From Thermodesulfobacteriota bacterium (GTDB lineage: Bacteria; Desulfobacterota; Desulfomonilia; UBA1062), in NCBI GenBank assembly GCA_034716155.1, contig JAYEFR010000082.1:427-64426 (forward strand): 64,000 nt of DNA. Reading direction: 5' to 3'. Within the stretch, counting starts at the first letter, position 1. Each line of letters begins with the position of its first letter. The notes beneath the pieces were generated by a model. The model was given only the letters and a program-made list of their open reading frames with translations. It had not been told where the DNA came from and made no database searches. Shown in pieces: positions 19,926 through 55,470 of this stretch. The position numbers and the translations under genes were made by a program.

Positions 19926-19946
19926 GTCCGGCAGGCCATGGCTATC

Positions 19947-21098
19947 TTACTTTCTCTTGCCAAGTATGTTTCTCGCGATCACTATCCTCATTATCTCGTT
20001 TGTACCTTCATATATCTGGGTGATCTTTGCGTCCCTCATATGCCTTTCCATAGGATACTCTGTTATATATCCATATCCGCCAAGTATCTGCACTCCTTCT
20101 ACGGACGCATCCATTGCAACATCTGAGGCAAACATCTTGGCCTGGGCCGCCTCCTTTTCAAATGGCAACCCTTTGCTCTCAAGCCATGCTGCCTTTAAAA
20201 TAAGCATCTCTGACGCATCTATGCGTGTTGCCATATCAGCGAGCTTAAACTGGATTGCCTGAAAACTTTCCAATGGTTTTCCAAACTGGACTCTCACCTT
20301 AACATATTCCAAGGCCTCCTCCAGGCAGGCCTTGGCGATCCCTAAGGCCTGCGATGCAATACCTATACGGCCGGAATCCAGGGTGGTGAGCATCTGTCTG
20401 AATCCAGACCCTGGATCGCCAATGATAGCGTCTTTGGGGATCATGGCATCTTCAAACACCAGTTCTGCAGTACCAGACGCCCTGATCCCCAATTTGTCTT
20501 CAACCTTACCAACAGAAAAACCTTTGGTTTCCTCTAGGTCAACAACAAATTGAGAAATGCCACGATATCCCTTTTCTTTATCCGTTATTGCGGCAAGTAT
20601 GGCATATTTTGCAATATTCCCATTCGTGATAAATCTTTTCTCACCATTTACAATCCATGTGTCTCCATCCAATACAGCAGTGGTCTTCATCCCGGACGGA
20701 TCAGATCCCGCATTTGCCTCTGTAAGTCCATAACACCCATGGGCCTGTCCGGATGCAACCGGGGTTAGAAACTCTTTTTTTTGTTCTTCGGAACCAAACT
20801 TCAAGACAGGAAACCCATAAAGCGAGTTGTTTACTGACATAATCACGCCTGTACCGGCACATGCCCTTGATATTTCTGTAAGGATAAGCGCGTATGCAAC
20901 ATAATCCATATCTGCACCACCATACCCGGATGGTATGGCTACTCCCATAAATCCCTGCTCGCCCATCTTCTTCAGTATTTCGTCCGAATGCTGATGACTC
21001 GCATCTAATTCAGCGGCAATAGGCTTAATCTCCTGATCTGCAAACCTTCCGGCCATGTCCTGAACCATCTTGTGTTCTTCACTCAACGCAAAGTCCAT
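19947..21098 (-). CDS. bcd: Short-chain (butyryl-) acyl-CoA dehydrogenase
   Basis: Classical ACAD layout with C-terminal ...YEGTNEI... motif. Start preferred at MDFALSEEHK (21098), where a GGGGG RBS lies 5 nt upstream. Confidence 0.85.
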   Translation of the reverse strand: MDFALSEEHKMVQDMAGRFADQEIKPIAAELDASHQHSDEILKKMGEQGFMGVAIPSGYGGADMDYVAYALILTEISRACAGTGVIMSVNNSLYGFPVLKFGSEEQKKEFLTPVASGQAHGCYGLTEANAGSDPSGMKTTAVLDGDTWIVNGEKRFITNGNIAKYAILAAITDKEKGYRGISQFVVDLEETKGFSVGKVEDKLGIRASGTAELVFEDAMIPKDAIIGDPGSGFRQMLTTLDSGRIGIASQALGIAKACLEEALEYVKVRVQFGKPLESFQAIQFKLADMATRIDASEMLILKAAWLESKGLPFEKEAAQAKMFASDVAMDASVEGVQILGGYGYITEYPMERHMRDAKITQIYEGTNEIMRIVIARNILGKRK

Positions 21099-21162
21099 AT
21101 AATCCCCCTGTAATATAATTATTCCCACAGGGTATTATCATAATCCTATAATCAGATTCAAG

Positions 21163-21288
21163 TTTATATGAAAACAGGGGTCGGGGATCAGGGGCCGGTT
21201 TTCAGGGATGGATGTTTTTCTCATCCTGGGCATATTCTCATGCTTGGTTGTGGGTACCTGCGCTCATGCGGGTTTATTAGATTGGATA
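21163..21288 (+). repeat. Intergenic repeat family A, copy 2 (X+Y modules)
   Basis: TTTATATGAAAACAGGGGTCGGGGATCAGGGGCCGGTTTTCAGGGATGGATGTTTTTCTCATCC...GCGCTCATGCGGGTTTAT. Confidence 0.65.
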
Positions 21289-28965: not shown

Positions 28966-31900
28966 CTATTCAAGATCAAGATTGATAGTTTCTTTCTCTA
29001 CTTCAGGATACACCTTGTCAATTGCCTTCTGAACTTCAATTGTTTTTTTAAGGGATGTAACAACCTTGCAGTAATGTTTTATATCCTCAAGGGATAGCAC
29101 CTTATCCTTTCTATCTTTCAGCCATTTACTGCAAACTTGATACCCACCGATCTGATATTCCCAGCAATCTTTCGGAATCCCTTCAAAATACTGGTTTTGA
29201 TTGATATAGATACATTCTTGCTTTTCATCATATCTTAACTTCTCGACCTTTTCGTCACCACTTCCCTGAAATTTGGCAAGGGGAGGATCAAGTTCTTGTG
29301 ATCTCAATAAATGCAAATCAACCAATTCTTTTCCATATTCAGCCATCCTGTTAAATATCTTGCAATCTCTTGTAAATGGAATTCTCGGGAAACCTCCCTT
29401 TAGAAACTCGGCATATTGAGTACGGTAGATATTCGAATAGAGAATTGCGTAGATGTAGTAGAAAATCTCTTCTGGTGTAATATTGGTAGAACAGACATTC
29501 TTGTCTGTTTCCTCTCTGTCTGTTTCTCCGTTGAAATACCAACCATGATACCCCCATGGACTTTCTGTTAATGCTCTTTTCACTGGATTATTCAGCATAT
29601 AATTCATTTTCTCGTTCAACTCGTTTTGATCCCTTATAATTCTATCAAAAGATTCCTCTTGCCAGATAGAGCCAGAAGTCCCCCTTTTTAAGTTGAGTTG
29701 TCGGGCTGATGCCCCCTTAATACCTCTCATTATTCTACTAAGATTATATTCTTCCTTCGGGGTCAACAAAAGATGAACATGATCTGGCATTACAATGGCT
29801 GCAATAAGTGTATAAAATTTTCCATTGCCCTCTATAATGTGTTTCAAAACCAGTTTCTGTTCCTCGATAGATAGATCTCCTTGGGCTGTTCTGAAAGTAA
29901 CAAAATATGTTGCATCCTTCAATGTCCAGTGTGGGAGATGTCTTCTTGTGATTTGAAGGTCATTGGTAGAACAGACATTTTTGTCTGTTTCCTCCAAGGT
30001 AGAACAGACATTTTTGTCTGTTTCCTCCAAATTAGTGTCAGACAAGAATGTCCGACCTACCGGACCTACCGCCGGACCTGCACTTTTACAAATGTCGGAT
30101 AACGCCTTGAAAATCTTTGGATTTATATTGGGTTGCCTTTTCTCTGCCTTTTCCATGTGGCCAATGAGCTCTTTCCTGTCTGTGTAGGGGTAGAGGTAGA
30201 GGGGAGCTAAGCTCATAATTCCTCTGTTGCTATAAAATGACCGATTGTCGATAATATTTTGGCTAATAAAAACATGGCTATATGTCTCATTTAATGCTAC
30301 CTGACGCATAAAGACAAGTCCTATATTCCCCTGCATCATGTGACGCATGACCTTTTTGCGTGAACGTTCAATAACTGCATCGTGATAGAAAATCCATCGA
30401 ATATCAAAGGGCCGATATAAAATCTTTGTGATAGAATCTCCCCATTTTTTATCCTTTCTCACCTCTTCTCGTGCAGCTTCCAATTTCCAGTTTGATTTAT
30501 CCTTTAACTCAAAGGTTTGTCTTACAAGGCCATCGGGCATATTTTTATCGCAGAAGGTCCTAATCCGCTGTTTAAGCTTTTCTTTATCAGAGTCTATTAC
30601 AAATTTGTCTCTTGATGTTACCACCCCCACACTATTAAGTGGAAATATCTCAGTTATTTTAGGCCATCTTTCATAATACTCTAAAAGCCTTTCATCCCTT
30701 GGCACAAAAAGATAAAATTCAGATTTTGGGGAGAGCTGATTCCATTCAATTGTTTCTACATTATTCTCTAAAAGCCACTCGTATTTATTTTCTCGCATCC
30801 CCCAAATCTCTGAATGATAGACCTTGCATTCGCTCTTTTTCTCTTGATTTTTTATACAGAGTGCAATGGCTACACCCTGCTGGATGTCAAAGACATTTTC
30901 ATCCTTAGAGCCGTCAGGGCTCTTCTCTTTTTTCAGGCTATTGCCGTGTAGATCAAGAATATAGATTTCATTGAAACTGTTCATCACTGATTGGCGCATA
31001 CCTCTAAAGGTGGGATTATCAAGATAGCTATGATTGGTAATATATCCTAATACTCCTTCACCTGCCTGATCAATCTTCCACTGGGCAAACCGGATGAATT
31101 TCACATAATCGTCCTGAAGCCATTTTGGATTCTTTTCTCCAAGGGGTTTACCATCAACAAACTTGTAATCCCCAATAAGCTTTCCTATCCACGTTTTTAT
31201 CTTTCTTCTCTTTGCTATACCCTTTTTTGTTTTTATTGTGATGTACCTTTCACTTGCATTTGCAGAATGCCCTGAATACGGCGGATTGCCGAGGATTACC
31301 AGTATAGGCTGTTCCTTTTTAACTTTACCAGCCAGATGAGATTCCTCAGAAAGAGATGCCATAAACGGCAACCCTGTTTCAGCAAGTTCCTCCATCTCCA
31401 ATGTATTGGTGAGGTATAGTTTGAATCTGTCATCTTCTTTGAGTCTATACCCAAGCTCTTCTAAGAGAAAAGACATCTTCAAATAGCCCACTGCATAGGG
31501 AGCCATCATCAACTCAAAGGCATAAAAATTCTTAAGGATATGTTCTTTAATAAAATTCCCTTCCCCCCCTTCGCCATATTTAAAGACAAATTCCTCAACT
31601 GCCTGTTTTGCTGCCTCAGCTAGAAAGGTGAGGGTGCCTGCTGCTGGATCTAATACAGTAACCGAGCTGATTGCAAATCCCTCCCGTTTATCAAAGTGCT
31701 GCTTCAAGATGTGATGCAAAGAACGGACAATATAGGATACCACTGATTCTGGCGTATAATAGACACCTCTTTTCTCTCTTGTCTTTGGGTCATATTCGGC
31801 CAAAAAGGTCTCATAGAAATGAACAATAGGATCTTTGCCCCTTCCTTCATGAAAATACGTATGGAGAATTTCATTTACATCAGTAACCGCTAAGACCTCG

Positions 31901-32745
31901 GATATATCATCTATAATCCACTCCATTTGTTTGGGTAAGTCTTCAAGGGAGACAAAACTGAATACATCTCGTAAGATCCCAATAGTGTGTGGAATGTTGT
32001 CGTATGCAAGTTTTCTATTAAATCCATTTTCAGAGCGGGTACGGGCAGCAAAGAGACCATAGGTAATGGTCTGGGAATAGAGATCGGCAAACTCTTCTTT
32101 AGAAAGAGTACCAATAAGATATTTCCTGAATGCCTCATAAAATCCAAAGATGTGACCTTTTCCTTCCTCTTCTTTTAACTCCTGAGCAATGACTTCATCC
32201 TTTAAAAAACGTGTCCTCTTTGCCAATTCTATTGCCAAAGTTTTCGCACTATAGACCTTTGGAAGAGAAAAGGAGAAAAACTTTTCAAGCAATTTGATAA
32301 AATCTGCCTGTTTTTCAACAGGAGGTATCATTTTAAGTTTTTGTGCAACAAATGGCCTGCCGATGAGGACTTGATCTGCCAGGGTGCCATCACGATACAG
32401 CCTAAACTCAAAGAAATTGGTTAGTATCAGATTGGGGAAAGTTTTGCGATAGCGTTTTAACTGCTCGGAATTTTCTATCCTGTCTAAATTCTCAACCATT
32501 GGTGATTTTGCTTCAATGTATCCAACAATATGCTGGGTTCCGTCCCAGACTCTGAAATCAGGATTGCCGGCTTCGGTCTTTTTTGGCAAGATTGTAATAT
32601 AAATATTCCTTTTGCCGACTGAATCTGAATATTCTTTTAATAGACCTTTGAGGACAGAATAATAACTTTCTTCCCTTGCATCCCCCCGAGTTGCAATCTC
32701 AGATATTTTTCTCAAATACGACTTTAGCATCATGTCTTCTTTCAC
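28966..32745 (-). CDS. Single-polypeptide type IIG/IIL (MmeI-like) restriction-modification enzyme, carrying an in-frame RAYT/IS200-like transposase insertion in its C-terminal region
   Basis: 1259-aa continuous ORF. N-terminus has a PD-(D/E)xK-like motif NPDFRVW...IVGYIEAKS. Gamma-class N6-adenine MTase motifs follow: YYTPESVV, VLDPAAGTLTFL (motif I) and ILGNPPYSG (motif IV). The C-terminal ...EEIFYYIYAILYSNIYRTQYAEFLKGGFPRIPF... module is typical of large type IIG/PglX-like MTases. The aa ~850-1040 insert has Y1 HuH motifs (see mobile_element). Confidence 0.7.
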   Translation of the reverse strand: MKEDMMLKSYLRKISEIATRGDAREESYYSVLKGLLKEYSDSVGKRNIYITILPKKTEAGNPDFRVWDGTQHIVGYIEAKSPMVENLDRIENSEQLKRYRKTFPNLILTNFFEFRLYRDGTLADQVLIGRPFVAQKLKMIPPVEKQADFIKLLEKFFSFSLPKVYSAKTLAIELAKRTRFLKDEVIAQELKEEEGKGHIFGFYEAFRKYLIGTLSKEEFADLYSQTITYGLFAARTRSENGFNRKLAYDNIPHTIGILRDVFSFVSLEDLPKQMEWIIDDISEVLAVTDVNEILHTYFHEGRGKDPIVHFYETFLAEYDPKTREKRGVYYTPESVVSYIVRSLHHILKQHFDKREGFAISSVTVLDPAAGTLTFLAEAAKQAVEEFVFKYGEGGEGNFIKEHILKNFYAFELMMAPYAVGYLKMSFLLEELGYRLKEDDRFKLYLTNTLEMEELAETGLPFMASLSEESHLAGKVKKEQPILVILGNPPYSGHSANASERYITIKTKKGIAKRRKIKTWIGKLIGDYKFVDGKPLGEKNPKWLQDDYVKFIRFAQWKIDQAGEGVLGYITNHSYLDNPTFRGMRQSVMNSFNEIYILDLHGNSLKKEKSPDGSKDENVFDIQQGVAIALCIKNQEKKSECKVYHSEIWGMRENKYEWLLENNVETIEWNQLSPKSEFYLFVPRDERLLEYYERWPKITEIFPLNSVGVVTSRDKFVIDSDKEKLKQRIRTFCDKNMPDGLVRQTFELKDKSNWKLEAAREEVRKDKKWGDSITKILYRPFDIRWIFYHDAVIERSRKKVMRHMMQGNIGLVFMRQVALNETYSHVFISQNIIDNRSFYSNRGIMSLAPLYLYPYTDRKELIGHMEKAEKRQPNINPKIFKALSDICKSAGPAVGPVGRTFLSDTNLEETDKNVCSTLEETDKNVCSTNDLQITRRHLPHWTLKDATYFVTFRTAQGDLSIEEQKLVLKHIIEGNGKFYTLIAAIVMPDHVHLLLTPKEEYNLSRIMRGIKGASARQLNLKRGTSGSIWQEESFDRIIRDQNELNEKMNYMLNNPVKRALTESPWGYHGWYFNGETDREETDKNVCSTNITPEEIFYYIYAILYSNIYRTQYAEFLKGGFPRIPFTRDCKIFNRMAEYGKELVDLHLLRSQELDPPLAKFQGSGDEKVEKLRYDEKQECIYINQNQYFEGIPKDCWEYQIGGYQVCSKWLKDRKDKVLSLEDIKHYCKVVTSLKKTIEVQKAIDKVYPEVEKETINLDLE
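29485..30030 (-). mobile_element. RAYT/IS200-IS605-family Y1 (HuH) transposase module flanked by GTAG-hairpin REP sequences, inserted in-frame inside the RM gene
   Basis: Hairpin GGTAGAACAGACAttcttGTCTGTTTCCTC at 29485-29515, followed by a partial reiteration through ~29530. Tandem copies GGTAGAACAGACAtttttGTCTGTTTCCTCCAA sit at 29965-29996 and 29998-30029. Between them the translation RRHLPHWTLKDATYFVTFRT...IVMPDHVHLLLTP...RGTSGSIWQEESFDRIIRD...NYMLNNPVKRAL carries Y1 transposase hallmarks (HuH = HVH, Q..F.D/R.IR, Y...NPV). No ATG start of its own; each hairpin is translated as (E)ETDKNVCST(N) within the host ORF. Confidence 0.7.
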
Positions 32746-33074
32746 AATTATAAAGTTCTTAATACAGCATAGGAGACAATATCAGATCACAAAACACCTC
32801 AAAAATAACAATTGATATAAAACAGTGCTGATACTTTATGTCAGGCTTACCGATATGGAACTCACACCTGTCAGAAAGATACCAACAAAAGAATCACCTC
32901 CCTGAAATTTCCAATTTTATAGACGATTCCTGTAATCATTGTCAATAGCAAGCAGGGTGCTACCCTAATTCTTTTGAGAGGACATTCAAGCGTTTTTTGC
33001 TAATACATCTTGGCGAAGCGGAAGGATAGCGATTCTCCACCTTTAGCAATACCCCTTAAGCCCCGCATTTTACA

Positions 33075-37443: not shown

Positions 37444-37599
37444 TTTTGTTCTCCTTTATGCTTTTGATTTTTACAATAGAAAATCCTATATGATTGGGCC
37501 GGTGGGGGCTTCTTTATATGAAAATACCTTTAGTCGGTCAGGCTTTATGGGCCTTTCGAGCCGTATGCTGATATGTATTAGGCGATGTCTCTGCCGGAT

Positions 37600-41617: not shown

Positions 41618-41890
41618 ATGAAAGGGATTACTCAAGAAAAAATCAATTGGGCAAGAAAAATCCTTGGCTTGGATGATATTGCCACATATAAAGAGGTGAT
41701 GCTTACATGGAGAACCTCTATAAAAAAGATGCATCCGGATAAAGGTGGAGATAATGATAAAACAAGAGAGATTACCGAGGCAAAGGACATATTAGTTAAA
41801 TTCATAGAGAACTGTCCGTGTAGATTAATTCTAGAAGACAAATCTGACTGGTGGAATAGACGTTTTGGAAGACTTTGGGAAGAGGATTAA
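41618..41890 (+). CDS. Small J-domain (DnaJ-like) protein
   Basis: 90 aa with ...YKEVMLTWRTSIKKMHPDKGGDND... (HPD motif). Confidence 0.65.
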   Translation: MKGITQEKINWARKILGLDDIATYKEVMLTWRTSIKKMHPDKGGDNDKTREITEAKDILVKFIENCPCRLILEDKSDWWNRRFGRLWEED

Positions 41891-43766
41891 AAGGCCGGCA
41901 CATCCAAGAGCTCTCTTCTTGGTTATACTTGCTGCATTAATATTTGGTATCTACTATAATACCCTCGATAATGCCCCAACCAACTGGGATGATCCAGCAC
42001 TCTTTAGCAGACCCACCATCCACAAGATATCCATTGATAACCTAAAAGAAGTCCTGTCCTTCCATCCAGGCTCTACATACCAACCGATTAGGGATATATC
42101 ATATATGATAGACTTTAGCCTTTGGAAAAATAAGGCTGTCTTCGGCATGCATCTGCACAGCATGCTCCTCTATTATCTAATGATAGTTTTTTGCTGGGTC
42201 TTCCTTTTGAAACTGCTGCAAGCCTTTGGTATCGAAGAGGAAAAGGCCTTCCTATGGGCAGTATTATCATCTCTCATATTTGCCGTGCACCCTGTACATG
42301 TGGAGAGTGTGACATGGTTATATGCAAGAAAAGAACCTCTGCTTGGTATCTTTACGTTTTTGAGTCTGATATCGTTTTTAAAGGCAATATCCGGTAGAAA
42401 AAGACATTATATCCTCAGCATTGTCTTCCTTATTCTGGGAGCCCTCTCCAAACCCACCGCCTTGATGATCCCTTTAATAATGTTTGGTATTGACTTATGC
42501 CTTTATGTAAAAGACAAAGGAACGTCATACTGGAAAAAAAGGCTCCTTGTATATATCCCTCTAGTAATCATTGTAGCCCCCATGATGTTCAGGCTCATAT
42601 CCATGATGTCTGCAGTTGGTGGCATAAAACCCTACCATGGCGGCTCATTTGGGACCAATCTGCTGGCTGTATCTCAAATCCTGGCAAGTTATATCAAGCT
42701 TATCTCCCTAACCATCAATTATGCAGCTGACTATCCTATAAGGCTTTATGCAGATCCCCACCTATGGCAGGCATGGGTTTTTGTAGTGGTAAATATCTTC
42801 TTTATTGCCTCTGGTGTATGGGCATTCTTTAAAGGTAGGTATATATATCCCATCTTTGTGGGTTGGTATTATATATTTTTGCTGCCCGTATCACATATCT
42901 TTCCTATATCTCAAATACTGACAGATAGGTATGCACTGCTTCCCTCTTTGACCTGGTGTGTATTTATAGCCTATATCCTTAGCAAACTGTGGGATATACG
43001 TATAAATGTATGGAGGCTGTCACCGGACTTGCTAAGGCTTGTCTCTATTGCTTTGCTATCCATAATTATATGTTCATACAGTGCGATGACTATAAGGCAA
43101 AATGGCATCTGGCAAAATTCACTTTCACTGTGGGAAGACACCCTGGCAAAATACCCAAATTCAAGTCCTGCCAATGTAAATCTTTCTGTCTTATACATAA
43201 AACTGGGGAGATACAAAGAAGCTCAAGAACTTTGCGTAAATGCAATCAAAGAGCTCCCTTATGATTATCTGGCCATAAGCAATCTGGCGCTTGCTCAAAT
43301 GATGATGGAACAATACGATAACGCCATACATAACTACAAACAGGCGCTAAAACTAAAGCATGATCTCTCCAAGGCAAAATTGGGGCTGGCTAATGCCTAC
43401 TGGAAAGAAAGAGACTTTATAAATGTATATCAAGTATACAAAAATATAACCACCTCTTGTAATGTAAACAGAGCAAGATATGGCGCCCTTATCTATTACA
43501 GGCTTGGCTTTAGTGCATGGAAATTAAATAAAAAAGAACAGGCATTAATATATTACAAAAAGGCGAGCGTTCCGTCTTCCTGTCCACCCGTAGTCTTAAA
43601 AGACCTGGCAGATGCCTACACAAGCATGGGCGAAGTGCCTGAGGCACTAGAATGCTATAAAAGGGTATTAAAGACTGAAACAAACAAAAAACTAAAGAGT
43701 TATGCAAAGGACCGGATAAAGATGCTTTCTCATAAACACCCATACCTGCAAGGCTCTCACAACTAA
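41865..43766 (+). CDS. Polytopic membrane protein with C-terminal TPR repeats (TMTC/PMT-like putative glycosyltransferase, DUF1736-type)
   Basis: N-terminal ...YYNTLDNAPTNWDD..., ~10 TM segments, then a TPR-rich C-terminus. The start overlaps the J-domain gene by ~26 nt and may lie further downstream. Confidence 0.6.
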   Translation: MEDFGKRIKRPAHPRALFLVILAALIFGIYYNTLDNAPTNWDDPALFSRPTIHKISIDNLKEVLSFHPGSTYQPIRDISYMIDFSLWKNKAVFGMHLHSMLLYYLMIVFCWVFLLKLLQAFGIEEEKAFLWAVLSSLIFAVHPVHVESVTWLYARKEPLLGIFTFLSLISFLKAISGRKRHYILSIVFLILGALSKPTALMIPLIMFGIDLCLYVKDKGTSYWKKRLLVYIPLVIIVAPMMFRLISMMSAVGGIKPYHGGSFGTNLLAVSQILASYIKLISLTINYAADYPIRLYADPHLWQAWVFVVVNIFFIASGVWAFFKGRYIYPIFVGWYYIFLLPVSHIFPISQILTDRYALLPSLTWCVFIAYILSKLWDIRINVWRLSPDLLRLVSIALLSIIICSYSAMTIRQNGIWQNSLSLWEDTLAKYPNSSPANVNLSVLYIKLGRYKEAQELCVNAIKELPYDYLAISNLALAQMMMEQYDNAIHNYKQALKLKHDLSKAKLGLANAYWKERDFINVYQVYKNITTSCNVNRARYGALIYYRLGFSAWKLNKKEQALIYYKKASVPSSCPPVVLKDLADAYTSMGEVPEALECYKRVLKTETNKKLKSYAKDRIKMLSHKHPYLQGSHN

Positions 43767-43932
43767 GGATGAAAATATATCTAGCCCTGAGTGGTTTTTT
43801 AGTTTTGTACATATACTTGTCAGTAGTCCATTGCTCGTTGTCCGTTGTAAAACCTTCAGATATAATTATCACCTCCCAATATACCACTGACAACTAACTA
43901 CGGACAACGGACGAGTATTTTTTATATAAACA
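43765..43932 (+). repeat. Intergenic repeat family B, copy 1 (MITE/REP-like, begins right after the TPR gene stop)
   Basis: AAGGATGAAAATATATCTAGCCCTGAGTGG...CTTGTCAGTAGTCCATTGCTCGTTGTCCGTTGT...CCACTGACAACTAACTACGGACAACGGACGAGTATTTTTTATATAAACA. Confidence 0.65.
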
Positions 43933-43935
43933 TAC

Positions 43936-45486
43936 CTAGAGCCCAGACCCGGGCTTAAATTTCGAGGTAACAGCAAGCAAGGCATATACGCGATTGGACT
44001 TAAAACTACTCTTTACCCCTATATCCATACGGCCCTTTAACTCTTTAATCAGATCACCCAAATCCTTTGTGGATACAGCCAAATAAAAGCTGTTGCCAAA
44101 GGGGACCACATCTCTGCTTACTATTGCCGGAGATGCCCCTACATATCCCAGGTAGCCCCTCATATACATATCATCTTCAAACACCAAAAGGGGCAGGCCT
44201 GATATCTCTTTTATATATTGCTCAGGGTTATATACGATGTCCTTTGCAGGTAGCATTATGAAGGAGTATGCCCAGCATACGACAATAACAGAGAGGACCT
44301 CTAAAAATACGGCCAGAGCCAATCGGTTCCTGTGAATTAGCCACGCAAGACAAATAGCAATAGAACCAAGGACCCCTATGGCTATGCCTTGCTTTATATA
44401 TAGAGAGCTATCTGTATCAGTGCAGATAATAGCTATCACTCCTGCTGCAAGGATAATAAGACCGGCAGATATAACAGCCCATCTTTTAACCTTAAGGATA
44501 CGAGAAACACCTTTAAGGCCTGTAGCGACCCAGTAACCTATAAGTATCCCAATAAATGGCACAGCAAGGACAGCATAGCCTGGCTCACAATGCTGAGAAA
44601 ACCACAGTATCGCAAGACTTACTACAAGTGCAATCTTCGAAGGTAAGAGCTTCTTCCATGCGCCGTCCTCATCTGGTTTTATTTCATAGGCCCATGCCGG
44701 TATTACGAGGGGAAACCACGGCAGGCCAAATTTAATGAGCGCCCATGAACTTTTGAAAAACCCCATATCAAGGCCGTGAGATAATGCCCCAGATACAAAA
44801 GAAGGCCCTCCGGCAATTCTATATACAAGGTAAAACCCTAACAGAACCACGCAGAATATAAAGACACCTGTGATAGGCATTATACCTAAGAATCTGCCAG
44901 GGGCCAGATCGATCAGGATTAGGAATATTACGCTAAAGACTACGAATGCCAGCATAGTCCAGCCACCCGTAATAGTGGCAAGGCAGACCATGATGTATGA
45001 AGGTATATACCACACAGGCTTTACACCTTTCAGGTATGCTGTAAAAAACATCATGAGCGCAACTATAGAACATGTGCAAGGGATGGCCGACACATTTAAT
45101 GACGAATACGTAATTAAAAAGCCATAGCTGGTAGCAGTAAAGAGGGAAGACCACAAAGCTGTCCAGGTATTCCAGAGCACAAGACAAAAGATAAAGACAC
45201 TCCCCGCGACTATGAGGCCTAATAAGATGGCAACAAATCTGAAAACAAGTATGTTATCTCCAGGAATAAGGGATAGTAAAATAATATTTACAGGGTTTTG
45301 ATCAGAAAGGATCTGTCCATTTAACTCCGGCACCAGGGGAAAAACCCCGTGTAACTCTCTAATTACCTCCAAGAGCCATATCTCCTGGCCTTGCCATAAA
45401 CCATGGTTAAGGATAAGGGGAACCATACATACAAGACAAACGGCACACACTCCAATAAGTATCATAAGGTTCTTTAAGCCCCTCAC
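43936..45486 (-). CDS. Polytopic membrane protein, putative GT-C-fold glycosyltransferase (ArnT/PMT-like)
   Basis: 516 aa with 12+ TM segments; only weak resemblance to the 4-amino-arabinose/mannosyltransferase family, so the call is tentative. Confidence 0.45.
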   Translation of the reverse strand: MRGLKNLMILIGVCAVCLVCMVPLILNHGLWQGQEIWLLEVIRELHGVFPLVPELNGQILSDQNPVNIILLSLIPGDNILVFRFVAILLGLIVAGSVFIFCLVLWNTWTALWSSLFTATSYGFLITYSSLNVSAIPCTCSIVALMMFFTAYLKGVKPVWYIPSYIMVCLATITGGWTMLAFVVFSVIFLILIDLAPGRFLGIMPITGVFIFCVVLLGFYLVYRIAGGPSFVSGALSHGLDMGFFKSSWALIKFGLPWFPLVIPAWAYEIKPDEDGAWKKLLPSKIALVVSLAILWFSQHCEPGYAVLAVPFIGILIGYWVATGLKGVSRILKVKRWAVISAGLIILAAGVIAIICTDTDSSLYIKQGIAIGVLGSIAICLAWLIHRNRLALAVFLEVLSVIVVCWAYSFIMLPAKDIVYNPEQYIKEISGLPLLVFEDDMYMRGYLGYVGASPAIVSRDVVPFGNSFYLAVSTKDLGDLIKELKGRMDIGVKSSFKSNRVYALLAVTSKFKPGSGL

Positions 45487-45628
45487 AAAATCATCCTCCC
45501 AATATTACAAGGATTTACCTGCTCGTCATAACGGTGTCAAGCTCAACAATCAAATATTTTCTAAGGGCTTGACTTAAAGGAGACACAGAAATAATATACC
45601 CGCCAATAAATTATGGTGGAGGGAATAA

Positions 45629-46405
45629 ATGGCATCCATAGAAGAAATCCTTAAACAAAAAGGAACCCCTAGACCAAAAATCAGCCTCCGTTCTGATGGA
45701 AGAAAGCCGGAAGAAATGAGGTATGTGCATTTGACCCGCAATTATCTTAAAACCGCCCCTGGGTCTTGCCTTATAGAGGTAGGAGATACAAAGGTAGTAT
45801 GTGCAGCAAATATAGAAGAGAGGGTGCCACCTCGCCTGAAAAATACTGGGACAGGGTGGATAACAGCGGAATATAGCATGCTCCCTGCCTCAACATCCCC
45901 ACGTTCTGTAAGGGAGGCATCTCGAGGTAGGATGAAGGGAAGAACACATGAAATCCAGAGACTCATAGGAAGAGCATTAAGGGCAGCAGTGAATCTTCAA
46001 CTCCTGGGGGAAAGAACCATTTTACTGGATTGTGACGTAATACAGGCAGATGGGGGGACAAGAACTGCATCTATCACGGGTGCATACGTGGCTCTTTATG
46101 ACGCCATTTCGTGGATACTCAAAAATAGCATGATAGCCAAAAACCCTATCCATGATCAGGTAGCTGCCATCTCCGTTGGTATAGTAGAAGAAGATCTCCT
46201 CTTAGACCTTAACTATGAAGAAGACTCAAAAGCAGATGTGGATATGAATGTAGTTATGACAGGAAAAGATTATATTATAGAGGTACAGTGTACTGCTGAA
46301 GGCAGGCCCTTTTCAAAAGAACAGATGGAAACACTTATCGGAATCGCACAAGAAGGGATTCACAAACTCATACAAAAACAGTTGAATATACTTGGTCTGA
46401 AATGA
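45629..46405 (+). CDS. rph: Ribonuclease PH
   Basis: ...[11 protein letters not shown]...[12 protein letters not shown]...[20 protein letters not shown]... are canonical RNase PH motifs. Confidence 0.9.
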
Positions 46406-46992
46406 AGGTCTTGCTTGCCACCACAAACCAGAAAAAGATACAAGAAATTTCAGACATCCTTTCCGATACAACAATCACTATAATAACACCTGACGATATG
46501 GATATGTTTATGACTGTGAAAGAAGATGGATCAACCTTCAAAGAAAATGCAATCAAAAAGGCCACTGCCTGGGCAGAAGCCTCAGGAATGAATGCACTGG
46601 CTGATGATTCCGGTCTATGTCTTACAGCCCTTGGCGGGAGGCCCGGGGTGAAGTCTGCACGCTTTGCCGGAGAGAATGCGACTGATGAAGATAACTGGAG
46701 ATTATTGCTCAAGTGTATGAAGGGTATAAAAGACAGAGGGGCAAAATTTATATGCGTGGTAGCACTGGCTATGCCTGATAGTAATGTAATAACAGCACAA
46801 GGGGTCTACCCCGGTTTTATCCTGGACAAACCTGCGGGCACTAGTGGTTTTGGATATGACCCTGTCTTTTTCGATCCTGAAACAAAAAAGACCTTTGCAC
46901 AACTATCTCCTGAGGGCAAAAATCAGCGCAGCCACAGAACAAGGGCACTTCTGGCACTCAAAAGGCGCCTTAAGGAGTTAAAATATATATAA
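46402..46992 (+). CDS. rdgB: Non-canonical purine NTP pyrophosphatase (RdgB/HAM1, dITP/XTP)
   Basis: [16 protein letters not shown]..., ...GFGYDPVF...; its start overlaps the rph stop (ATGA). Confidence 0.85.
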
Positions 46993-47003
46993 CCCATCAA
47001 CTG

Positions 47004-47226
47004 TTTGTATGAAAATAGGGGTCGGGGATCAGGGGTCGGTTTTCAGGGATGAATGTTTTTCTCATCCCGAAAATATTTTCATCGTTAGTTGTGGCCGGTA
47101 GGCCATGGCAGTTTATATGAAAAAGAAGTCAGGAGTCAGAATTCAGAAGTTAGGATACACGTAATAATCCAATCGGAAGCATTCCGGATTCTGGATACTT
47201 TTTCATGCTTCGTTTATATGAAAATA
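47004..47226 (+). repeat. Intergenic repeat family A, copy 3 (most complete: X+Y+Z modules)
   Basis: TGTATGAAAATAGGGGTCGGGGATCAGGGGTCGGTTTTCAGGGATGAATGTTTTTCTCATCC...GTTTATATGAAAAAGAAGTCAGGAGTCAGAATTCAGAAGTTAGGATACACGTAATAATCCAATCGGAAGCATTCCGGATTCTGGAT...CGTTTATATGAAAATAGC. Confidence 0.65.
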
Positions 47227-47593
47227 GCAATCAGCATTAAATCAAAATAAAAAAATTTAGTGCTTACATAGAAAACATGAGTGAATATCTAGGTTTTCTA
47301 TCAGAGGGGGTCGAATTTTAAAGGAAAAGTTAGATTTAGCAAATTATGAGTTGTCTACAAAATGTAGAAAACCTTAGAATATGAGCTTATGACAATGTAA
47401 ATCAATATTATGTGGAATACCATAAAAAGTTTAGCGATCTTAGTGCATTAACTTTTGTATCTCTCTATTAAGGGGAATTTTTTATTTGGTGCTAAATGAC
47501 GAAAATCGACCGAGTCGAAGATTGACGTCATCTTGTGAAAGTAAGATACATGGCAACATATACTGTGGTAAACAAATTTTATATGGGGGGCAT

Positions 47594-48940
47594 ATGAACA
47601 AACAACCAGGTCTTGGACATATAAAAGACTTAATACAGACAAAAGTAAAAAATCCCTCAGAAAAACCGCTGATAGATCAAATGGATATCTGCATACAGGA
47701 TGGGTCTGCTATGGTATATTGCCCAAGCCCTTTTGTTCTCAATTATATACATCAACATCACAAAGACATTATTATAAATGAGATACAAAAACTCCTTGGT
47801 AAATCTGCGGACATAGAATTCTCTGTGCGCTCTAATAAAGGCTCCAATAAAAAGTCATCTTCTATAAACAAGCCCATACAAATGGTTCTCCCCTCTGCTG
47901 CTAAGCCCTCACCTGTACGAGGGCTCAATCCAAAATTTACATTTGAGGAATTTGTGGTTGGTAAGTGTAATGCCTTTGCATATGAGGCAGCAATGGCGGT
48001 GTCTGACGAGGCTCTAAGCAAATACAGTCCATTATACTTCTATTCGGATACAGGCCTTGGGAAGAGTCATATTGCGCACGCTATTGGGAATAAGGTGATA
48101 AAGTCCGAGGCAAATATTACGGTAAGGTATACCACAGCTCAAGATTTCTCCGCAGAATATGTGTATTCTGTTAGAAATAATCGTATTGATCAATTCAAAC
48201 GCACGTATAGTAGCAAGTGTGATGTCTTTTTTATTGATGATGTACATCTATTCAAAAACAAAGAAAAGACTCAAATGGAGCTAAGCTATATACTAGATGA
48301 ATTTATGAGTAATGATAAACAGGTTGTCCTTTCGGGATTCAGACCTCCGGCATCAATCCCCTATATGGATAAAGGCCTAAAATCAAGATTTTCTTCTGGA
48401 TTGGTAATAGATATAAAGAGGCCTGACAGACAAACCAGGGCCAATATTGTAAGACGTAAGGCATCAAAAGAGGGTATATCTCTTCCGGATGATATAGTAG
48501 GCTTTATTAGCGAGAATATAAAGAATAATATCAGAGAACTAGAAAGTGCAGTGCTGACCGTATCTGCTATGAGTTCTTTGATGAAAAGAGAAATCACATT
48601 GGATATGGTAAAAGAACTCCTGGAAGGAACACTTGAAAGGCGGGAAAGGATATCCATCCCGTTTATCCAGGGATTTGTGGCAAAAAACTTTGGGATCTCA
48701 AAGGAGCAATTAATCTCCCCGTCAAGAAAGAAAGGGATTGTATATCCAAGGCAAGTCGCAATATTTCTATGCAGGCACTACACAAAAGAGCCCTTACAGG
48801 TTATCGGCCAGACCTTTTCCAGAAGGCATTCCTCTATTATACACTCTCTAGAGGTAATCGATGAAATGTACACCGGAAATTTGAAGACAAAAAGAGAGAT
48901 CGATTTCCTTATGGAAACATTAGAAAATGCCGTACTCTAA
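47594..48940 (+). CDS. dnaA: Chromosomal replication initiator protein DnaA
   Basis: Domain III NPKFTFEEFVVGKCN, Walker A GDTGLGKSHIAHAIGN, Walker B-like DVFFIDDVH, sensor IRELESAV; domain IV ...YPRQVAIFLCRHYTKEPLQVIGQTFSRRHSS.... Start preferred at MNKQPGLGHIKDL (47594, G-run RBS); the 36-codon extension to 47486 looks non-coding. Confidence 0.9.
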   Translation: MNKQPGLGHIKDLIQTKVKNPSEKPLIDQMDICIQDGSAMVYCPSPFVLNYIHQHHKDIIINEIQKLLGKSADIEFSVRSNKGSNKKSSSINKPIQMVLPSAAKPSPVRGLNPKFTFEEFVVGKCNAFAYEAAMAVSDEALSKYSPLYFYSDTGLGKSHIAHAIGNKVIKSEANITVRYTTAQDFSAEYVYSVRNNRIDQFKRTYSSKCDVFFIDDVHLFKNKEKTQMELSYILDEFMSNDKQVVLSGFRPPASIPYMDKGLKSRFSSGLVIDIKRPDRQTRANIVRRKASKEGISLPDDIVGFISENIKNNIRELESAVLTVSAMSSLMKREITLDMVKELLEGTLERRERISIPFIQGFVAKNFGISKEQLISPSRKKGIVYPRQVAIFLCRHYTKEPLQVIGQTFSRRHSSIIHSLEVIDEMYTGNLKTKREIDFLMETLENAVL

Positions 48941-48943
48941 GGC

Positions 48944-49122
48944 CTTTATATGAAAATACTTGTCCGTTGTCCGTGGTTAGTTGTCAGTGGTATATTGGAA
49001 GGAGATCATCCTATTTGGAGGGTTTATTACAACGGACAACGAGCAAAAAAACTACTGACAGGTATAAGTACAGAACTAAACGATCGCTCAGGGCAAAATA
49101 CATTTTCATTCTTCGTTGTGTC
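48944..49122 (-). repeat. Intergenic repeat family B, copy 2 (inverted relative to copy 1; begins right after the dnaA stop)
   Basis: Its reverse complement aligns base-for-base with 43765-43932, including the GTCCGTTGTCCG and TTGTCAGT cores and TTTATATGAAAATAC at one end. Confidence 0.65.
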
Positions 49123-49147
49123 CAAAAGGACATGCAGGTTAGATTAG

Positions 49148-50437
49148 TTAATCGAAAGATCCCGTGTTTCCAAACTGAGAATCTTCTTTAAGAAGCGCTC
49201 TCCTGCTTATCTCTCTGAAGTTATCCACCCCTATAAAGAACTCCCTCATCATAATAACCCAGTAATACATACCCTTTTCAGTTACCCTGATGATGTCTTT
49301 ATCCATATGAATACCCCCTATTAAAAGAAAGAATAAGCACTCGACCCATAAGGCAGACCATAAACCACAACCAAACCTCTCCTTAAAAAGGGCCCTTCCC
49401 ATCTCTAAACCAAAGAGGCTCATAAGAAAGTGATATCGAGCCATCTCCTTTATGGAAAATATCTTTTTCGATTTCAAGGGGAGTCTGCCTGAATTTAAAT
49501 CTTCTGCATACTCTTTTATGGAAAATGTATTAGAGTAGATGGTGTTGCCCACAAGACCGAAAGAGCCACTTCCTGCTCCAACATATTGATCGTAGTTTAC
49601 TATATACTCATCTATCATATCTAAATCCTTTTTCGAAAAACACCATGCAGAACTTGGTGTATAACCATCAGCCAGTCTGTCTTGAATCATGCGGTAGAAG
49701 GCAGCCTCTTTTTTATAGCTTATCCTCCCCATGATCTTCTCCATCCTTCTCTTGGTGGCATCAGGTACCATCAATGGATAAAATGTAACCTGGTCCGGGG
49801 CAATTTTTTCTATCACATCAAGATCATGCTCCAGCATAGCTGGCGTCTGAATTGGAAAATTATATATCATGTCCAGATTTAGTGTCCCTACATCCCCCAT
49901 GACATCTTGCACAAGACGCTTCATCTCAAATCCGGATCCATATCTATCATACCTGTCTATAAGTCTTAGGATGGTATCGTCAAAGCTTTGTATACCTACA
50001 GATATTCTGCCAACCCCCATATCAACCAGTAAGGCTATATCCTTTTTGTGTAGATGATCCGGGTTTGTCTCTACAGATATGTCTTTTGGCGAGAACAATT
50101 TATGTATAAGAGATAGAGTATCAACAAGCTCATCCATCATAATCGTAGGGGTCCCCCCTCCAATATATACCCCTCCAAATTTATACCCCATATCCTTGTA
50201 GATCTTCAGTTCTTTTCTCAATGCCTTGTAGTATAGCCGCGCAGTCTCTTCATGAAACTTAAACCTGTGAAAAGAACAATACGGACACAGTTCTTTACAA
50301 AATGGTATGTGCACATAGAGTTCTATGCTATCCAATGGTGGATTTGGCGGAAGCAAAATATTATCAGGTTCCTCAAATTTAAGGTATGCCTTTGACTTGT
50401 ATTTTAAAAACCATCCAATAAACTCTTCTATAATCAT
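49148..50437 (-). CDS. Radical SAM protein, HemN/HemW-like (oxygen-independent coproporphyrinogen-III oxidase-like/heme chaperone)
   Basis: ...ELYVHIPFCKELCPYCSF... (CxxxCxxC) followed by the HemN-type core. Confidence 0.75.
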   Translation of the reverse strand: MIIEEFIGWFLKYKSKAYLKFEEPDNILLPPNPPLDSIELYVHIPFCKELCPYCSFHRFKFHEETARLYYKALRKELKIYKDMGYKFGGVYIGGGTPTIMMDELVDTLSLIHKLFSPKDISVETNPDHLHKKDIALLVDMGVGRISVGIQSFDDTILRLIDRYDRYGSGFEMKRLVQDVMGDVGTLNLDMIYNFPIQTPAMLEHDLDVIEKIAPDQVTFYPLMVPDATKRRMEKIMGRISYKKEAAFYRMIQDRLADGYTPSSAWCFSKKDLDMIDEYIVNYDQYVGAGSGSFGLVGNTIYSNTFSIKEYAEDLNSGRLPLKSKKIFSIKEMARYHFLMSLFGLEMGRALFKERFGCGLWSALWVECLFFLLIGGIHMDKDIIRVTEKGMYYWVIMMREFFIGVDNFREISRRALLKEDSQFGNTGSFD

Positions 50438-52527: not shown

Positions 52528-54198
52528 CTAAGCGCTATATCTTTGCTCTAACCGTTTTTTTGTATACTCATCTATCATCTTCAACAAGACATCCTTCTTT
52601 GCCTCAAGATATGTATTTCCTTTTATATATTCATTGAAGAACAACATTCTTTTCTCAAGGGGGGTAAATTCCGTAAGCGATGCATTTAAATAGCTTAAAT
52701 TTTTCGCTATCTGCCTGATTCCCAAGAAATGACGCCTTTTAAGCCTATCCAAATCTATTAAAAAGAATTCTTTTTTATCCAGAGAAACAAGGATATTATC
52801 TCCCTTTAGATCCACGGGCAATAACCCCATCTCATGGATATGTCTTACATAATGAGAGAGGGCTAATATTTCTTCATCACTAATACCCTTTTGCTCTACA
52901 TACTCTACGAGGTTTAATGCATTAAGACCGTATGTCGCAATAAATGAATTGATAAGCACCCTAAATACCCTCTTCTCACAGGCGAATACCGGCATGGGTG
53001 TGCGCATTCCCAAGGAATCCATAACAAGGGCCCCTTCAAAGGTATTAAGCGCCCTGCTTTTCCGAAATACATTTTTGATGGTGTCTTTAATCCCCTTAAA
53101 ATTGTATCGTTTCAGATATATGAAATCTCTATCCAGGTATCCCCTCTTCACAAAGGTCGTCCTGGATCGATTCATTACATCCCAGGCGGATGACTCCATG
53201 AATATATTAGGGGCTATGATTTGTGGTGGGACCCGTGCTTTTTTGGCTAAAAACCACTTATATCCATTTTTCATTATAACTTTATATCTTAGAGTTAAGT
53301 CTTCCAACCCCCATGTAGACGGCATACCTATTAGGTGCCATAAAAGGAGGACAAAAGATCGCTTTAATCTTTTCCTCATATCAGGGATAAAAGAAATCAA
53401 TAGATTCGCACCAATCTCTAATGAAAGTTTCAGGAGCATACCTATATAAAGCATTATAGTGTTGTATATGCCTTTATGTTTCAGGAAAAACCTGTACAAA
53501 GAACGATAAAATTCTATCTTCCTTTGGGTATCCAGCCTTCTTGCGCTCAAGCCCTGATAATGAACGATCTTGAGCCCAGGCAGGTGCCATACCTCAAAGC
53601 CATGATCTGTTGCCCTTTTACAAAAGTCTGTCTCCTCTAAGTAAAAGAAGAAGCCTTCATCAAGGAGACCTATCTCATCTATAAGGCACCTCCTTATCAT
53701 CATAAACGCACCAATGACAGATGGGACCTCTACAGGGGATGTAAACTTGGAGCGCTTGCTTGGATAGGACACAGGAAAGATAATCTTTAAAAGGGCCTTA
53801 TTCAAGAGTTGAGTGGTAAGCGTTGGTATAACATCTACAGAATTTTGGAGTCTCCTATCCCCAAAGACAAGCTGAATCCCACAGACTCCAGCCCTTGGAT
53901 GCCCCTTCATAAAATTTTGCGCAGGGGTTATTACATCGGTAATAAGCAAGGTGTCTGCATTCAATAATAATACAAACTCGCCTGAAGCTATCCTTATGCC
54001 CATATTTGCTGCCCTGGCAAACCCGAGATTCTGTCTGTTCTCTATAATAGTAATGTCTTTATCTGGAATATTAAGGGAAGTGGCAAAATTATTCACGACT
54101 ATAATCTCGTAATCACAGCCTGCATTTTCTCTAATGGATGCAATACAGTTGATAAGATGTTCATCTTGGCCCAGTGTTATTATGATTATGCTGACCAT
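52528..54198 (-). CDS. Bifunctional family-2 glycosyltransferase / lipopolysaccharide (Kdo/WaaP-type) kinase fusion protein
   Basis: N-terminal GT2 (MVSIIIITLGQDEHLINCIASIREN...), C-terminal LPS-kinase-like region (...LPVDLKGDNILVSL...FFLIDLDRLK...). Confidence 0.65.
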   Translation of the reverse strand: MVSIIIITLGQDEHLINCIASIRENAGCDYEIIVVNNFATSLNIPDKDITIIENRQNLGFARAANMGIRIASGEFVLLLNADTLLITDVITPAQNFMKGHPRAGVCGIQLVFGDRRLQNSVDVIPTLTTQLLNKALLKIIFPVSYPSKRSKFTSPVEVPSVIGAFMMIRRCLIDEIGLLDEGFFFYLEETDFCKRATDHGFEVWHLPGLKIVHYQGLSARRLDTQRKIEFYRSLYRFFLKHKGIYNTIMLYIGMLLKLSLEIGANLLISFIPDMRKRLKRSFVLLLWHLIGMPSTWGLEDLTLRYKVIMKNGYKWFLAKKARVPPQIIAPNIFMESSAWDVMNRSRTTFVKRGYLDRDFIYLKRYNFKGIKDTIKNVFRKSRALNTFEGALVMDSLGMRTPMPVFACEKRVFRVLINSFIATYGLNALNLVEYVEQKGISDEEILALSHYVRHIHEMGLLPVDLKGDNILVSLDKKEFFLIDLDRLKRRHFLGIRQIAKNLSYLNASLTEFTPLEKRMLFFNEYIKGNTYLEAKKDVLLKMIDEYTKKRLEQRYSA

Positions 54199-55151: not shown

Positions 55152-55177
55152 AACGCTTAATCCTACAATGACACTTA

Positions 55178-55211
55178 GTAATTTCATAACCGTTAACGGT
55201 TATGAAATTAC
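55178..55211. promoter_or_regulatory. 34-bp perfect palindrome GTAATTTCATAACCGTTAACGGTTATGAAATTAC at the 5' edge of the LPS-core operon
   Basis: Seen directly: the 17-nt half-sites are exact reverse complements around a GTTAAC centre. Confidence 0.55.
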
Positions 55212-55337
55212 TTTGTCCTCTGCGTATAGTTTTATGGAGTAGGAGTAATGGAATGTTGGAGTACTGGAATTTTAAAAGCCATCCCACTAGATGCACAATT
55301 GCGCACACAGAACAATGGCAAACGCCCACCATCTTTT

Positions 55338-55362
55338 CAATACTCCAATACTCCAATACTCC
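55338..55362. repeat. Three tandem CAATACTC octamers in the same divergent promoter region
   Basis: CAATACTCCAATACTCCAATACTCC seen directly. Confidence 0.5.
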
Positions 55363-55470
55363 AAACAATATGTTGTGTTATAGTTACTCAATTTATACCA
55401 TATATTGTACCAAAAATGCTAGATGCCGTTGTAAGGTTAAGTGATATTTCATATTTAATATTTTAGCAAG

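Follow-up and report, generated by a model that had tools for sequence, protein, structure and literature searches.

Two inverted repeat copies at the dnaA locus

We analysed a 64,000-nt stretch of a Thermodesulfobacteriota genome (assembly GCA_034716155.1, contig JAYEFR010000082.1; hereafter the window) and compared it with the loci of relatives. In the window, two inverted copies of a ~200-nt repeat, B1 and B2, lie on either side of a segment carrying rph, rdgB and dnaA, each taking up all of the space between the stop codons of two convergent genes. The limits of the repeat unit were set by comparing B1 and B2 with 14 further copies. The locus is organized as follows.

41865-43766, + strand: TPR-repeat protein gene (Pfam), its 3′ end inside the B1 junction module
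43732-43932, sense strand −: family-B unit B1, in the order, from 43732, of flanking TTTAT, REP-like junction plus 3′ module (43732-43778), tail, right arm, loop, left arm and 5′ module
43816-43848, − strand: B1 right heptamer arm, ACAACGGACAACGAGCAATGGACTACTGACAAG on the − strand
43884-43915, − strand: B1 left heptamer arm, CTCGTCCGTTGTCCGTAGTTAGTTGTCAGTGG on the − strand
43915-43931, − strand: B1 5′ module, GTTTATATAAAAAATAC
43936-45486, − strand: open reading frame (ORF) of 516 aa without a confident domain match and in convergent orientation to the TPR gene
45629-46405, + strand: rph, RNase PH (Pfam)
46402-46992, + strand: rdgB/Ham1 (Pfam)
47594-48940, + strand: dnaA (Pfam), 448 aa from the ATG at 47594, the likely start
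48945-49138, + strand: family-B unit B2
48945-48958, + strand: B2 5′ module, TTTATATGAAAATA
~48959-48990, + strand: B2 left heptamer arm, followed by the conserved loop
~49027-49062, + strand: B2 right heptamer arm, followed by the conserved tail
49103-49117, + strand: B2 3′ module, TTTTCATTCTTCGTT
49118-49138, + strand: B2 junction hairpin, GTGTCCAAAAGGACATG plus CAGG
49148-50437, − strand: radical-SAM gene (Pfam), convergent with dnaA

The preliminary description of this DNA had reported inverted repeats that bracket an rph-rdgB-dnaA block and abut stop codons. The repeats themselves are confirmed, including the end motifs quoted for them. A repeat scan recovered two pairs of inverted arms, 43848-43921/48953-49026 (74 nt, 86%) and 43758-43827/49051-49120 (70 nt, 83%), and a MAFFT alignment of the B1 reverse complement with B2 gave a mean column identity of 85% over ~200 columns, the longest perfect match being 23 nt. 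Pfam supports the three genes of the block, but the name given to it omits the 516-aa ORF. The abutment holds for B2, which starts 4 nt past the dnaA stop (48940) and ends 9 nt before the radical-SAM stop (49148-49150). It does not hold at the TPR side of B1: with the unit limits taken from the 14 further copies, B1 overlaps the end of the TPR gene instead of following it, its 3′ module spanning the stop codon (43764-43766) and ~11 final codons. Its other end is 4 nt away from the stop codon (43936-43938) that closes the 516-aa ORF.

The last TPR codons, SHKHPYLQGSHN and the stop, are encoded by the junction module (43732-43766), and the same junction module at 1320-1366 reads CHKPPCLQGRHNQG before a stop. 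The 3′ end and stop codon of a gene appear to have been supplied by insertion of a repeat.

A modular superfamily of intergenic repeats that includes family B

B is one of several body types of a modular superfamily whose units occur about once per 5 kb in intergenic gaps of this uncultured, Desulfomonilia-like deltaproteobacterium. Each unit begins with TTTAT and a 5′ module, GTTTATATGAAAAnA, continues with a body containing heptamer-repeat arms, and closes with a 3′ module, TATTTTCAT-nnTTnGTT, optionally followed by a hairpin of the form GTG-stem-CATG that resembles a repetitive extragenic palindrome (REP). The consensus is (G)TTTAT / ATGAAAAnA / body / TnTTTTCAT-nnTTnGTT / optional hairpin, G-nnG-GTT / TAT, and TTTAT is present at both flanks of most units. 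The arms consist of variable heptamers of the NNGTCNG type; in family B they flank a conserved 40-nt loop, which is followed by a conserved 60-nt tail. Three body families are distinguished by their heptamers.

Family A: GGGGTCG/GGGATCA, plus a small hairpin
Family B: TTGTCCG/TTGTCAG
Family C: GAGTCAG/AATTCAG/AAGTTAG

Further body types exist beyond these three, among them a GTAGGGGCCGATGCCCTCATCGGCC type that bears GTAG-tagged palindromes.

The motif TTTATATGAAAA has 30 matches in the window at up to two mismatches, against 15.2 expected, a count reached by none of 100 shuffles; ~10 of the 30 sites head recognizable units. In 245 kb of lineage DNA there are ~50 5′ modules, or roughly one per 5 kb. 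The DnaA homologues belong to metagenome-assembled genomes labelled Deltaproteobacteria, Desulfomonilia or Thermodesulfobacteriota, and two long contigs, L121 and L123, were found through homologues of the 516-aa ORF (93-94% identity). The relatives are as follows.

L121: 151-kb contig, ~96% DNA identity to the window
L123: 391-kb contig, ~92% DNA identity to the window
L002: GCA_964625035.1, DnaA 92% identical to that of the window
L003: GCA_021162585.1, DnaA 75% identical
L117-L120: several assemblies, DnaA 61-64% identical

An identical DnaA was found only on a 1.8-kb Logan contig, both ends of which lie inside repeat units; the identical dnaA contig belongs to SRR26901925. The breakpoints of short-read contigs coincide exactly with such units.

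A 24-base pattern from the non-heptamer tail of B occurs at 14 places in metagenomes of the Joint Genome Institute (JGI). All but one of these, 13 in number, are in assembly Ga0210003, the one that includes L121. Together, the window and its close relatives yielded 16 distinct B copies for alignment, and these occupy convergent, tandem and divergent gaps in both orientations. Conserved among them are the 5′ module, the TTTGTGGTATATTGGAAGGTGATCATCC loop, ACAACGGAC and the tail ACTACTGACAAGTATAnGTACAnAACTAAAAGACCACTCAnGGCTAnATATATTTTCAT. Both arms vary in how many heptamers they have and in the heptamer sequence, and the junction hairpin varies in type. Inspection of the 16 copies by eye revealed no conserved reading frame and no conserved start codons; the frame differs between copies because heptamer indels shift it. 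A profile of the B core added no full copy in lineage DNA, where it gave one partial match (L130:12226-12287); L123, L002 and L003 yielded none, and loci of other phyla gave weak heptamer matches alone.

Besides B1 and B2, the superfamily units of the window include the following.

1330-1966, − strand: cluster of units, comprising a long unit (~1330-1650), a junction (1651-1690) and a family-A unit (1888-1966)
19769-19945, + strand: junction module, then a family-C unit, abutting the stop of a − strand acyl-CoA dehydrogenase gene
21162-21277, + strand: family-A unit with junction, in a divergent intergenic gap
47003-47330, + strand: tandem array of three units upstream of dnaA
47003-47110, + strand: family-A unit of the array, with a long junction
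47111-47212, + strand: family-C unit of the array, with a short junction, followed by the third unit

Two other repeat families were seen in the same DNA. A longer repeat of ~300 nt with the core TTGCTAATACATCCTTTGGCGG occurs at 1353-1650 and 32990-33040, and in L123 (17366-17596) it is inserted at the site of the window's unit at 37513. A hairpin repeat of the GTCATTGCGAG...CTCGCAATGAC type lies at 1735-1820 and 7630-7672; a related form is present in the gap between dnaA and the radical-SAM gene of L003 (L003:11420-11490).

Units are gained, lost and exchanged between close relatives

Comparison of the same sites across genomes of 92-96% identity revealed gain and loss of units as well as their exchange. 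At the B2 site, L123 and L002 have a 23-nt gap free of any element, and more distant relatives have gaps of 8-32 nt. In L121, the same 5′ and 3′ modules are present with a junction hairpin that differs by 1 nt, and they enclose an unrelated body, GACAGAAAGCCTTGTAGGGGCCGATGCCCTCATCGGCC... The B1 site carries B in both the window and L121, with different heptamer arms, and in L123 the same modules enclose a different composite body. The array upstream of dnaA has three contents in three genomes (window, L121 and L123) between conserved modules: an unrelated body replaces the A and C bodies in L121, and the C unit is absent from L123. L121 also has a third B copy (20617-20810) where the window has a 4.2-kb restriction-modification (R-M) island.

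Terminal modules are retained while bodies are replaced and heptamer number varies. Sharing a position in two genomes does not make copies more similar than those at different positions; B1 is ~80% identical to its same-position counterpart in L121, their flanks being 96% identical, and it is nearer to copies elsewhere.

Other indels between these genomes are likewise heptamer hairpins. A 280-nt insertion in the window (55157-55440), missing from L121, L123 and L002, consists of a perfect palindrome, AGTAATTTCATAACCGTTAACGGTTATGAAATTACT, and a (GGAGTAn)/(CAATACT) heptamer hairpin, and a 195-nt (GCTTACT/GCCTACT/CCCTACT) hairpin that these three relatives all carry (L121:2810-3005) is missing at 52528-52531 of the window.

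Conserved inverted ends around a variable centre, units abutting stops and bodies that differ at the same site between close relatives are features expected if the ATGAAAA/TTTTCAT ends were sites like the attC sites of integrons, at which a site-specific recombinase exchanges bodies. The ends, GTTTATATGAAAA and TTTTCATnnTTnGTT, do not match the core sites RYYYAAC and GTTRRRY, however; the flanking genes are syntenic housekeeping genes rather than cassettes, and there is no integrase among the neighbouring genes. As neither core-site sequence nor gene context fits, we reject this explanation as scarcely credible.

We conclude that B1 and B2 very probably belong to a lineage-specific mosaic repeat, non-coding and non-autonomous, whose spread involves both insertion and the exchange of sequence from unit to unit. 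Colonization of a new site would proceed by a transposition-like insertion at or near TTTAT, with an enzyme acting in trans. A resident body could then give way to that of another unit by gene conversion or unequal recombination, acting through the 13-20-nt terminal modules that the units share, and the heptamer arms may be altered by slippage. Because the filled and empty B2 sites, when compared, reveal no clean target-site duplication, the insertion step is one that we infer.

Several observations weigh against a mosaic repeat of this kind. The empty B2 site, GGCCTTATTTATCTTTTAGATAG in L123 and L002 (a single naive site), cannot be cleanly converted into the filled site. A search of the 245 kb turned up no transposase or autonomous partner, and no paired 5′ and 3′ modules with a segment of transposase size between them; the only transposase-like gene in the window encodes a REP-associated tyrosine transposase (RAYT) that is accompanied by different, GTAG-tagged REPs. 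Conservation of the TTTGTGGTATATTGGAAGGTGATCATCC loop and the tail exceeds what a selfish spacer would need and, judging from the alignment, could point to a host or RNA function. Finally, the copy number of B and any strand bias with respect to replication are extrapolated from partial lineage DNA.

Orientation of the dnaA block and the position of the origin

The preliminary description had raised the possibility that the two copies act as substrates for recombinational inversion of the 5-kb dnaA block, a proposal suggested by their inverted arrangement, 85% identity and 5-kb spacing. The order and orientation of the TPR gene, 516-aa ORF, rph, rdgB, dnaA and radical-SAM gene are identical in the window, L121 and L123, and the partial contigs L122, L124 and L125 are consistent with this order; at contig level, all relatives examined showed a single orientation of the block. 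The convergent junction of dnaA and the radical-SAM gene, followed by DUF2905 and a rhomboid gene, is kept in L002, L003, L117, L118 and L119, with gaps of 23, 290, 32, 32 and 8 nt, respectively. This conserved junction indicates that the window retains the ancestral orientation of dnaA relative to the DNA outside the bracket. Moreover, B2 is missing from L123 and L002, the window holds many other copies in mixed orientation, and the longest perfect match between B1 and B2 spans just 23 nt. A perfect match of this length is marginal for RecA recombination. Inversion through B1 and B2 is thus extremely improbable.

No special relation between the repeats and the dnaA block remains, as B is dispersed, its 16 copies occupying all kinds of gap. 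Many copies in mixed orientation (16 aligned copies, with 13 pattern matches in one assembly) and a block of the same orientation in all contigs examined are the pattern that the preliminary description had itself named as contrary to its proposals. That two inverted copies flank rph-rdgB-dnaA is coincidental, units having occupied two convergent gaps independently.

An origin of replication between B1 and B2, with unit orientation dependent on the replichore, finds no support either. DnaA boxes form no cluster and are not enriched near dnaA (46993-47593), with 22 matches at up to one mismatch against 20.7 expected in the whole window, and the cumulative GC skew shows no switch at dnaA. Units to the left of dnaA point in both directions. 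The origin may not be adjacent to dnaA, or the DnaA boxes of this genome may be divergent.

Folding, termination and transcription

The junction hairpin is a REP-like element of 16-19 nt (GTG-stem-loop-stem-CAT), with 25 distinct instances in the 245 kb. These fall into four to five stem types and all 25 can pair, the closing pair being G·T (GTG...CAT) in 19 and A-T (ATG...CAT) in 2. They begin GTT-GTG, end CATG and, with a G·T closing pair, are more stable on one strand (mean −8.3 versus −7.3 kcal/mol). A short junction without the hairpin, TTTTTCATGCTTCGTTTATATG, exists at 47195-47220, so the hairpin module looks like an optional insert flanked by GTT.

Folding of the B body itself is modest. 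Single-sequence folding against shuffles gave z = −1.8 for B1 and −0.4 for B2; over the 16 copies the mean z was −1.9 for the sense strand and −1.6 for the antisense strand. RNAalifold on these copies found changes on both sides at three pairs, all of them in the junction hairpin. By these predictions, B is not a strong hairpin.

These results bear on whether B units serve primarily as terminators or as 3′-end stabilizers of the mRNAs of abutting genes, as REPs may and as the preliminary description had suggested. Placement is in keeping with this: B1 and B2 each fill a gap between convergent stops, several further copies abut stops, and REPs are found mostly downstream of coding regions (PMC3733652). 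In addition, the junction hairpin at 47088-47109, which is followed by GGTTTAT (tail AGTTTATATG), has the sole terminator-like score. By contrast, a terminator scan found no stem with a T-run in 43732-43932 or 48945-49138, the B cores fold just ~1.6-1.9 sd better than shuffles, some copies lie upstream of genes or between divergent starts, and the same gene pair has a 23-nt gap and no element in close relatives. What stands of the suggestion is the resemblance to dispersed REP-like repeats carrying a hairpin module; a dedicated terminator or stabilizer role agrees neither with the mild folding nor with the copies between divergent gene starts, and we regard it as unlikely. Any effect on neighbouring genes, such as a putative weak one-directional stop or a 3′-end hairpin, would be a by-product.

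Conservation within B could also be read as that of a multicopy small-RNA gene with its own promoter, whose transcript of ~110-130 nt would end at the junction hairpin. The promoter would comprise a −35-like TTGTCC/TTGTCA heptamer, an 18-nt spacer and the extended −10 TGGTATATT; with TTGTCC, this arrangement scores 9/12 plus TG at 48967-48996 in B2 and 43907-43878 in B1. The two best matches of the promoter scan (10/12) fall within B1, on opposite strands. Across the 16 copies the GTGGTATATTGG block shows little or no variation, the 105 nt downstream of it are best conserved, and one-sided changes from G-C to G-U preserve the GTGGT/ACCAC pairing on the sense strand. Promoter-like matches are, however, not enriched in the region (17 versus 15.4 expected), the predicted conserved pairing takes in the −10 block, which is upstream of the proposed start, and the internal stems lack both-side covariation. 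Rfam 15 gave no match in the window at the gathering score, and when B2 and the dnaA-proximal upstream array were scanned by E-value, the best sub-threshold values were E = 0.6-10. As the promoter-like arrangement coincides with the most conserved block of B, we retain a small-RNA gene as an improbable alternative.

Relation to REPs, RAYTs and other known repeats

REP palindromes carry a conserved GTAG (or CGTC) tetranucleotide at one end (PMC3733652). The general description of a REP as an imperfect palindrome of 20-40 nt, extragenic and of high copy number, applies here (25 junction hairpins and ~50 units in 245 kb); neither the family-B body (16 copies) nor the junction hairpin (25 instances) has a consistent GTAG or CGTC tag. 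The window's R-M island allowed a second comparison.

28966-32745, − strand: Type ISP/IIG R-M ORF of 1259 aa, with N6_Mtase and a Type_ISP_C domain split in two stretches
29548-29931, − strand: complete RAYT in frame inside the R-M ORF (NF047646, 86 bits; DHVHLL; Pfam Y1_Tnp)

The RAYT is flanked by the GTAG-tagged REPs GGTAGAACAGACATTTTTGTCTGTTTCC, which are read as the peptide EETDKNVCST; from its sequence, this arrangement looks like a REPtron nested in an R-M gene. The island, ~4.2 kb in all, is missing from the 96%-identical L121.

The units might themselves be REPs, or bacterial interspersed mosaic elements (BIMEs), mobilized by a RAYT acting on single-stranded hairpins. A RAYT is encoded in the window, above the family cutoff of 80 bits and with the HUH motif; the GTAGGGGCCGATGCCCTCATCGGCC-type bodies bear tagged palindromes, the junction hairpins, with a G·T closing pair, favour one strand, and units form BIME-like arrays. 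Against this, the one RAYT of the 64 kb is flanked by a different REP, family B and the junction hairpin lack the tag, and L121 has many B copies yet no RAYT island. Mobilization by a RAYT is accordingly quite unlikely. With the tag and REPtron tests both negative, B works like a mosaic repeat of the BIME, BOX or miniature inverted-repeat transposable element (MITE) type, and we place it in none of them.

Like the REPs and BIMEs of enterobacteria and pseudomonads, the units have high copy number, are extragenic, combine a short palindrome with other motifs, form arrays, vary in presence between strains and are frequently placed between convergent genes. They differ in their hairpin, which in B has no GTAG/CGTC tag, in their far greater length of 100-200 nt, and in the presence of heptamer arms and of conserved ATGAAAA/TTTTCAT modules that close the body.

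The pneumococcal BOX elements (boxA-boxB(n)-boxC, in Streptococcus pneumoniae) have conserved terminal modules and a variable middle, and are non-coding, intergenic and without a transposase of their own. The modular, dispersed, intergenic, non-coding character and the conserved ends are shared with our units, whereas the sequences and host phylum are unrelated and the middle here consists of unrelated body types and heptamer arrays instead of one repeated box. MITEs, such as the Correia elements of Neisseria and Nezha of cyanobacteria, resemble the units in being small, non-coding and multicopy, with short inverted ends (here ATGAAAAnA/TnTTTTCAT), a short direct repeat at either side (here TTTAT) and relatives in which sites are empty. 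In our units, however, the inverted 9-mers are not outermost, as the unit runs on through nnTTnGTT and the junction hairpin; comparison of filled and empty sites gave no clean target duplication, no parent insertion sequence was found in the 245 kb, and bodies are swapped while ends stay.

The short tandemly repeated repetitive (STRR) sequences of cyanobacteria are heptamer-repeat elements of unestablished function. Small dispersed repeats are reportedly described by Elhai and colleagues (2008), and our junction hairpin, 20-24 nt long with GTT on its flanks, is similar to very small nested repeats. The related tandem heptamers (CAACTGA/CAACGGA here), intergenic location and patchy distribution across phyla are common to our units and to STRR and TAACTGA repeats. 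The latter mostly take the form of direct-repeat arrays; in our case the heptamers make up both arms of a hairpin that is part of a larger conserved unit. TAACTGA arrays occur in Beggiatoaceae, Cyanobacteria and Bacteroidetes, their function not being established (MacGregor 2015, PMC4679880).

Geobacter metallireducens has (MTYCTGA)5 hairpin sites and (GGACCGG)4 elements; Aklujkar et al. (2009, PMC2700814) go no further than to call them putative IHF/HU or regulatory sites. These share with our units a deltaproteobacterial host, multicopy occurrence and 4-5 tandem heptamers drawn as hairpins, and they are mostly intergenic, with the (GGACCGG)4 family found within genes too. The MTYCTGA consensus is the reverse complement of the family-C heptamers of the window (TCAGGAG/TCAGAAT). 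Terminal modules, body swapping and family B are not described in that paper.

Heptamer hairpins in other phyla

Scanning species-representative genomes with the core pattern GTTGTCAGTGG N25-50 ACAACGGACAAC identified more than 112 stretches (L005-L116 among the matches listed). No B unit was present among the matches listed; instead, heptamer-hairpin cores of identical sequence, (TTGTCAG/TTGTCCG)n-loop-(CGGACAA/CTGACAA)n, were seen in Cyanobacteria, Planctomycetota, Acidobacteriota, Chloroflexota, Bacteroidota, Verrucomicrobiota and Desulfobacterota. Word searches of the literature for the heptamers returned no account of TTGTCAG/TTGTCCG hairpins.

These hairpins of the same heptamers, (GTCAGTT/GTCCGTT/GTCAGTG)n-loop-(AACGGAC/AACTGAC)n, have as hosts, among the matches listed, Anabaena/Dolichospermum, Planctomycetota (including Tepidisphaerales), Acidobacteriota, a Chloroflexia chromosome with many copies, Flavobacteriales, Verrucomicrobiae, Kuenenia and Desulfobacterales. 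They fold strongly (~−0.39 kcal/mol per nt), and many directly follow stop codons. A classification into coding and intergenic placement was discarded, as stop-to-stop ORF calls are unreliable in GC-rich genomes. On the Chloroflexia chromosome (OY969916.1) the hairpin lies in frame within adenylation-domain genes of nonribosomal peptide synthetases, where it encodes CPWSVVSGQLQRTTDNGQRTTDN between two conserved motifs, ...LTAERFVP and RLYRTGDLA, at the following places.

L029:963-1019
L029:4446-4502
L084:3309-3365
L087

In Tepidisphaerales (L018, L030 and L031), the heptamers are nested, (GGGTTCA)n (GAAGTTA)n (GAAGCGA)n (GTCNGTN)n-loop-complements, which resembles the co-occurrence of A, B and C heptamers in the lineage of the window.

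A bolder proposal, which we consider a decided long shot, is that the units form a new class of cassette-like hairpin elements. A dedicated putative enzyme would recognize ATGAAAAnA/TnTTTTCAT and the GTG-hairpin-CATG and swap bodies, and the hairpin cores seen across phyla would be products of one widespread DNA-level mechanism rather than of independent slippage.

Elsewhere in the window, ARAGORN predicted an unusually long tRNA-Asp (GTC) of 88 nt (16381-16468, − strand), which overlaps a mechanically called ORF (15634-16542, − strand).

Implications for the lineage

The repeats neither mark nor regulate the dnaA block, and an inversion switch is not indicated. Instead, bodies are replaced at fixed terminal modules between genomes 4-8% apart, and this replacement is a main source of small-scale genome differences in the lineage. 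Turnover of the units breaks short-read assemblies and remodels the 3′ ends of genes, as in the TPR gene, whose end falls within a unit. That heptamer hairpins are found in many phyla and link to these units bears on the nature and origin of the STRR-type heptamer repeats of cyanobacteria.

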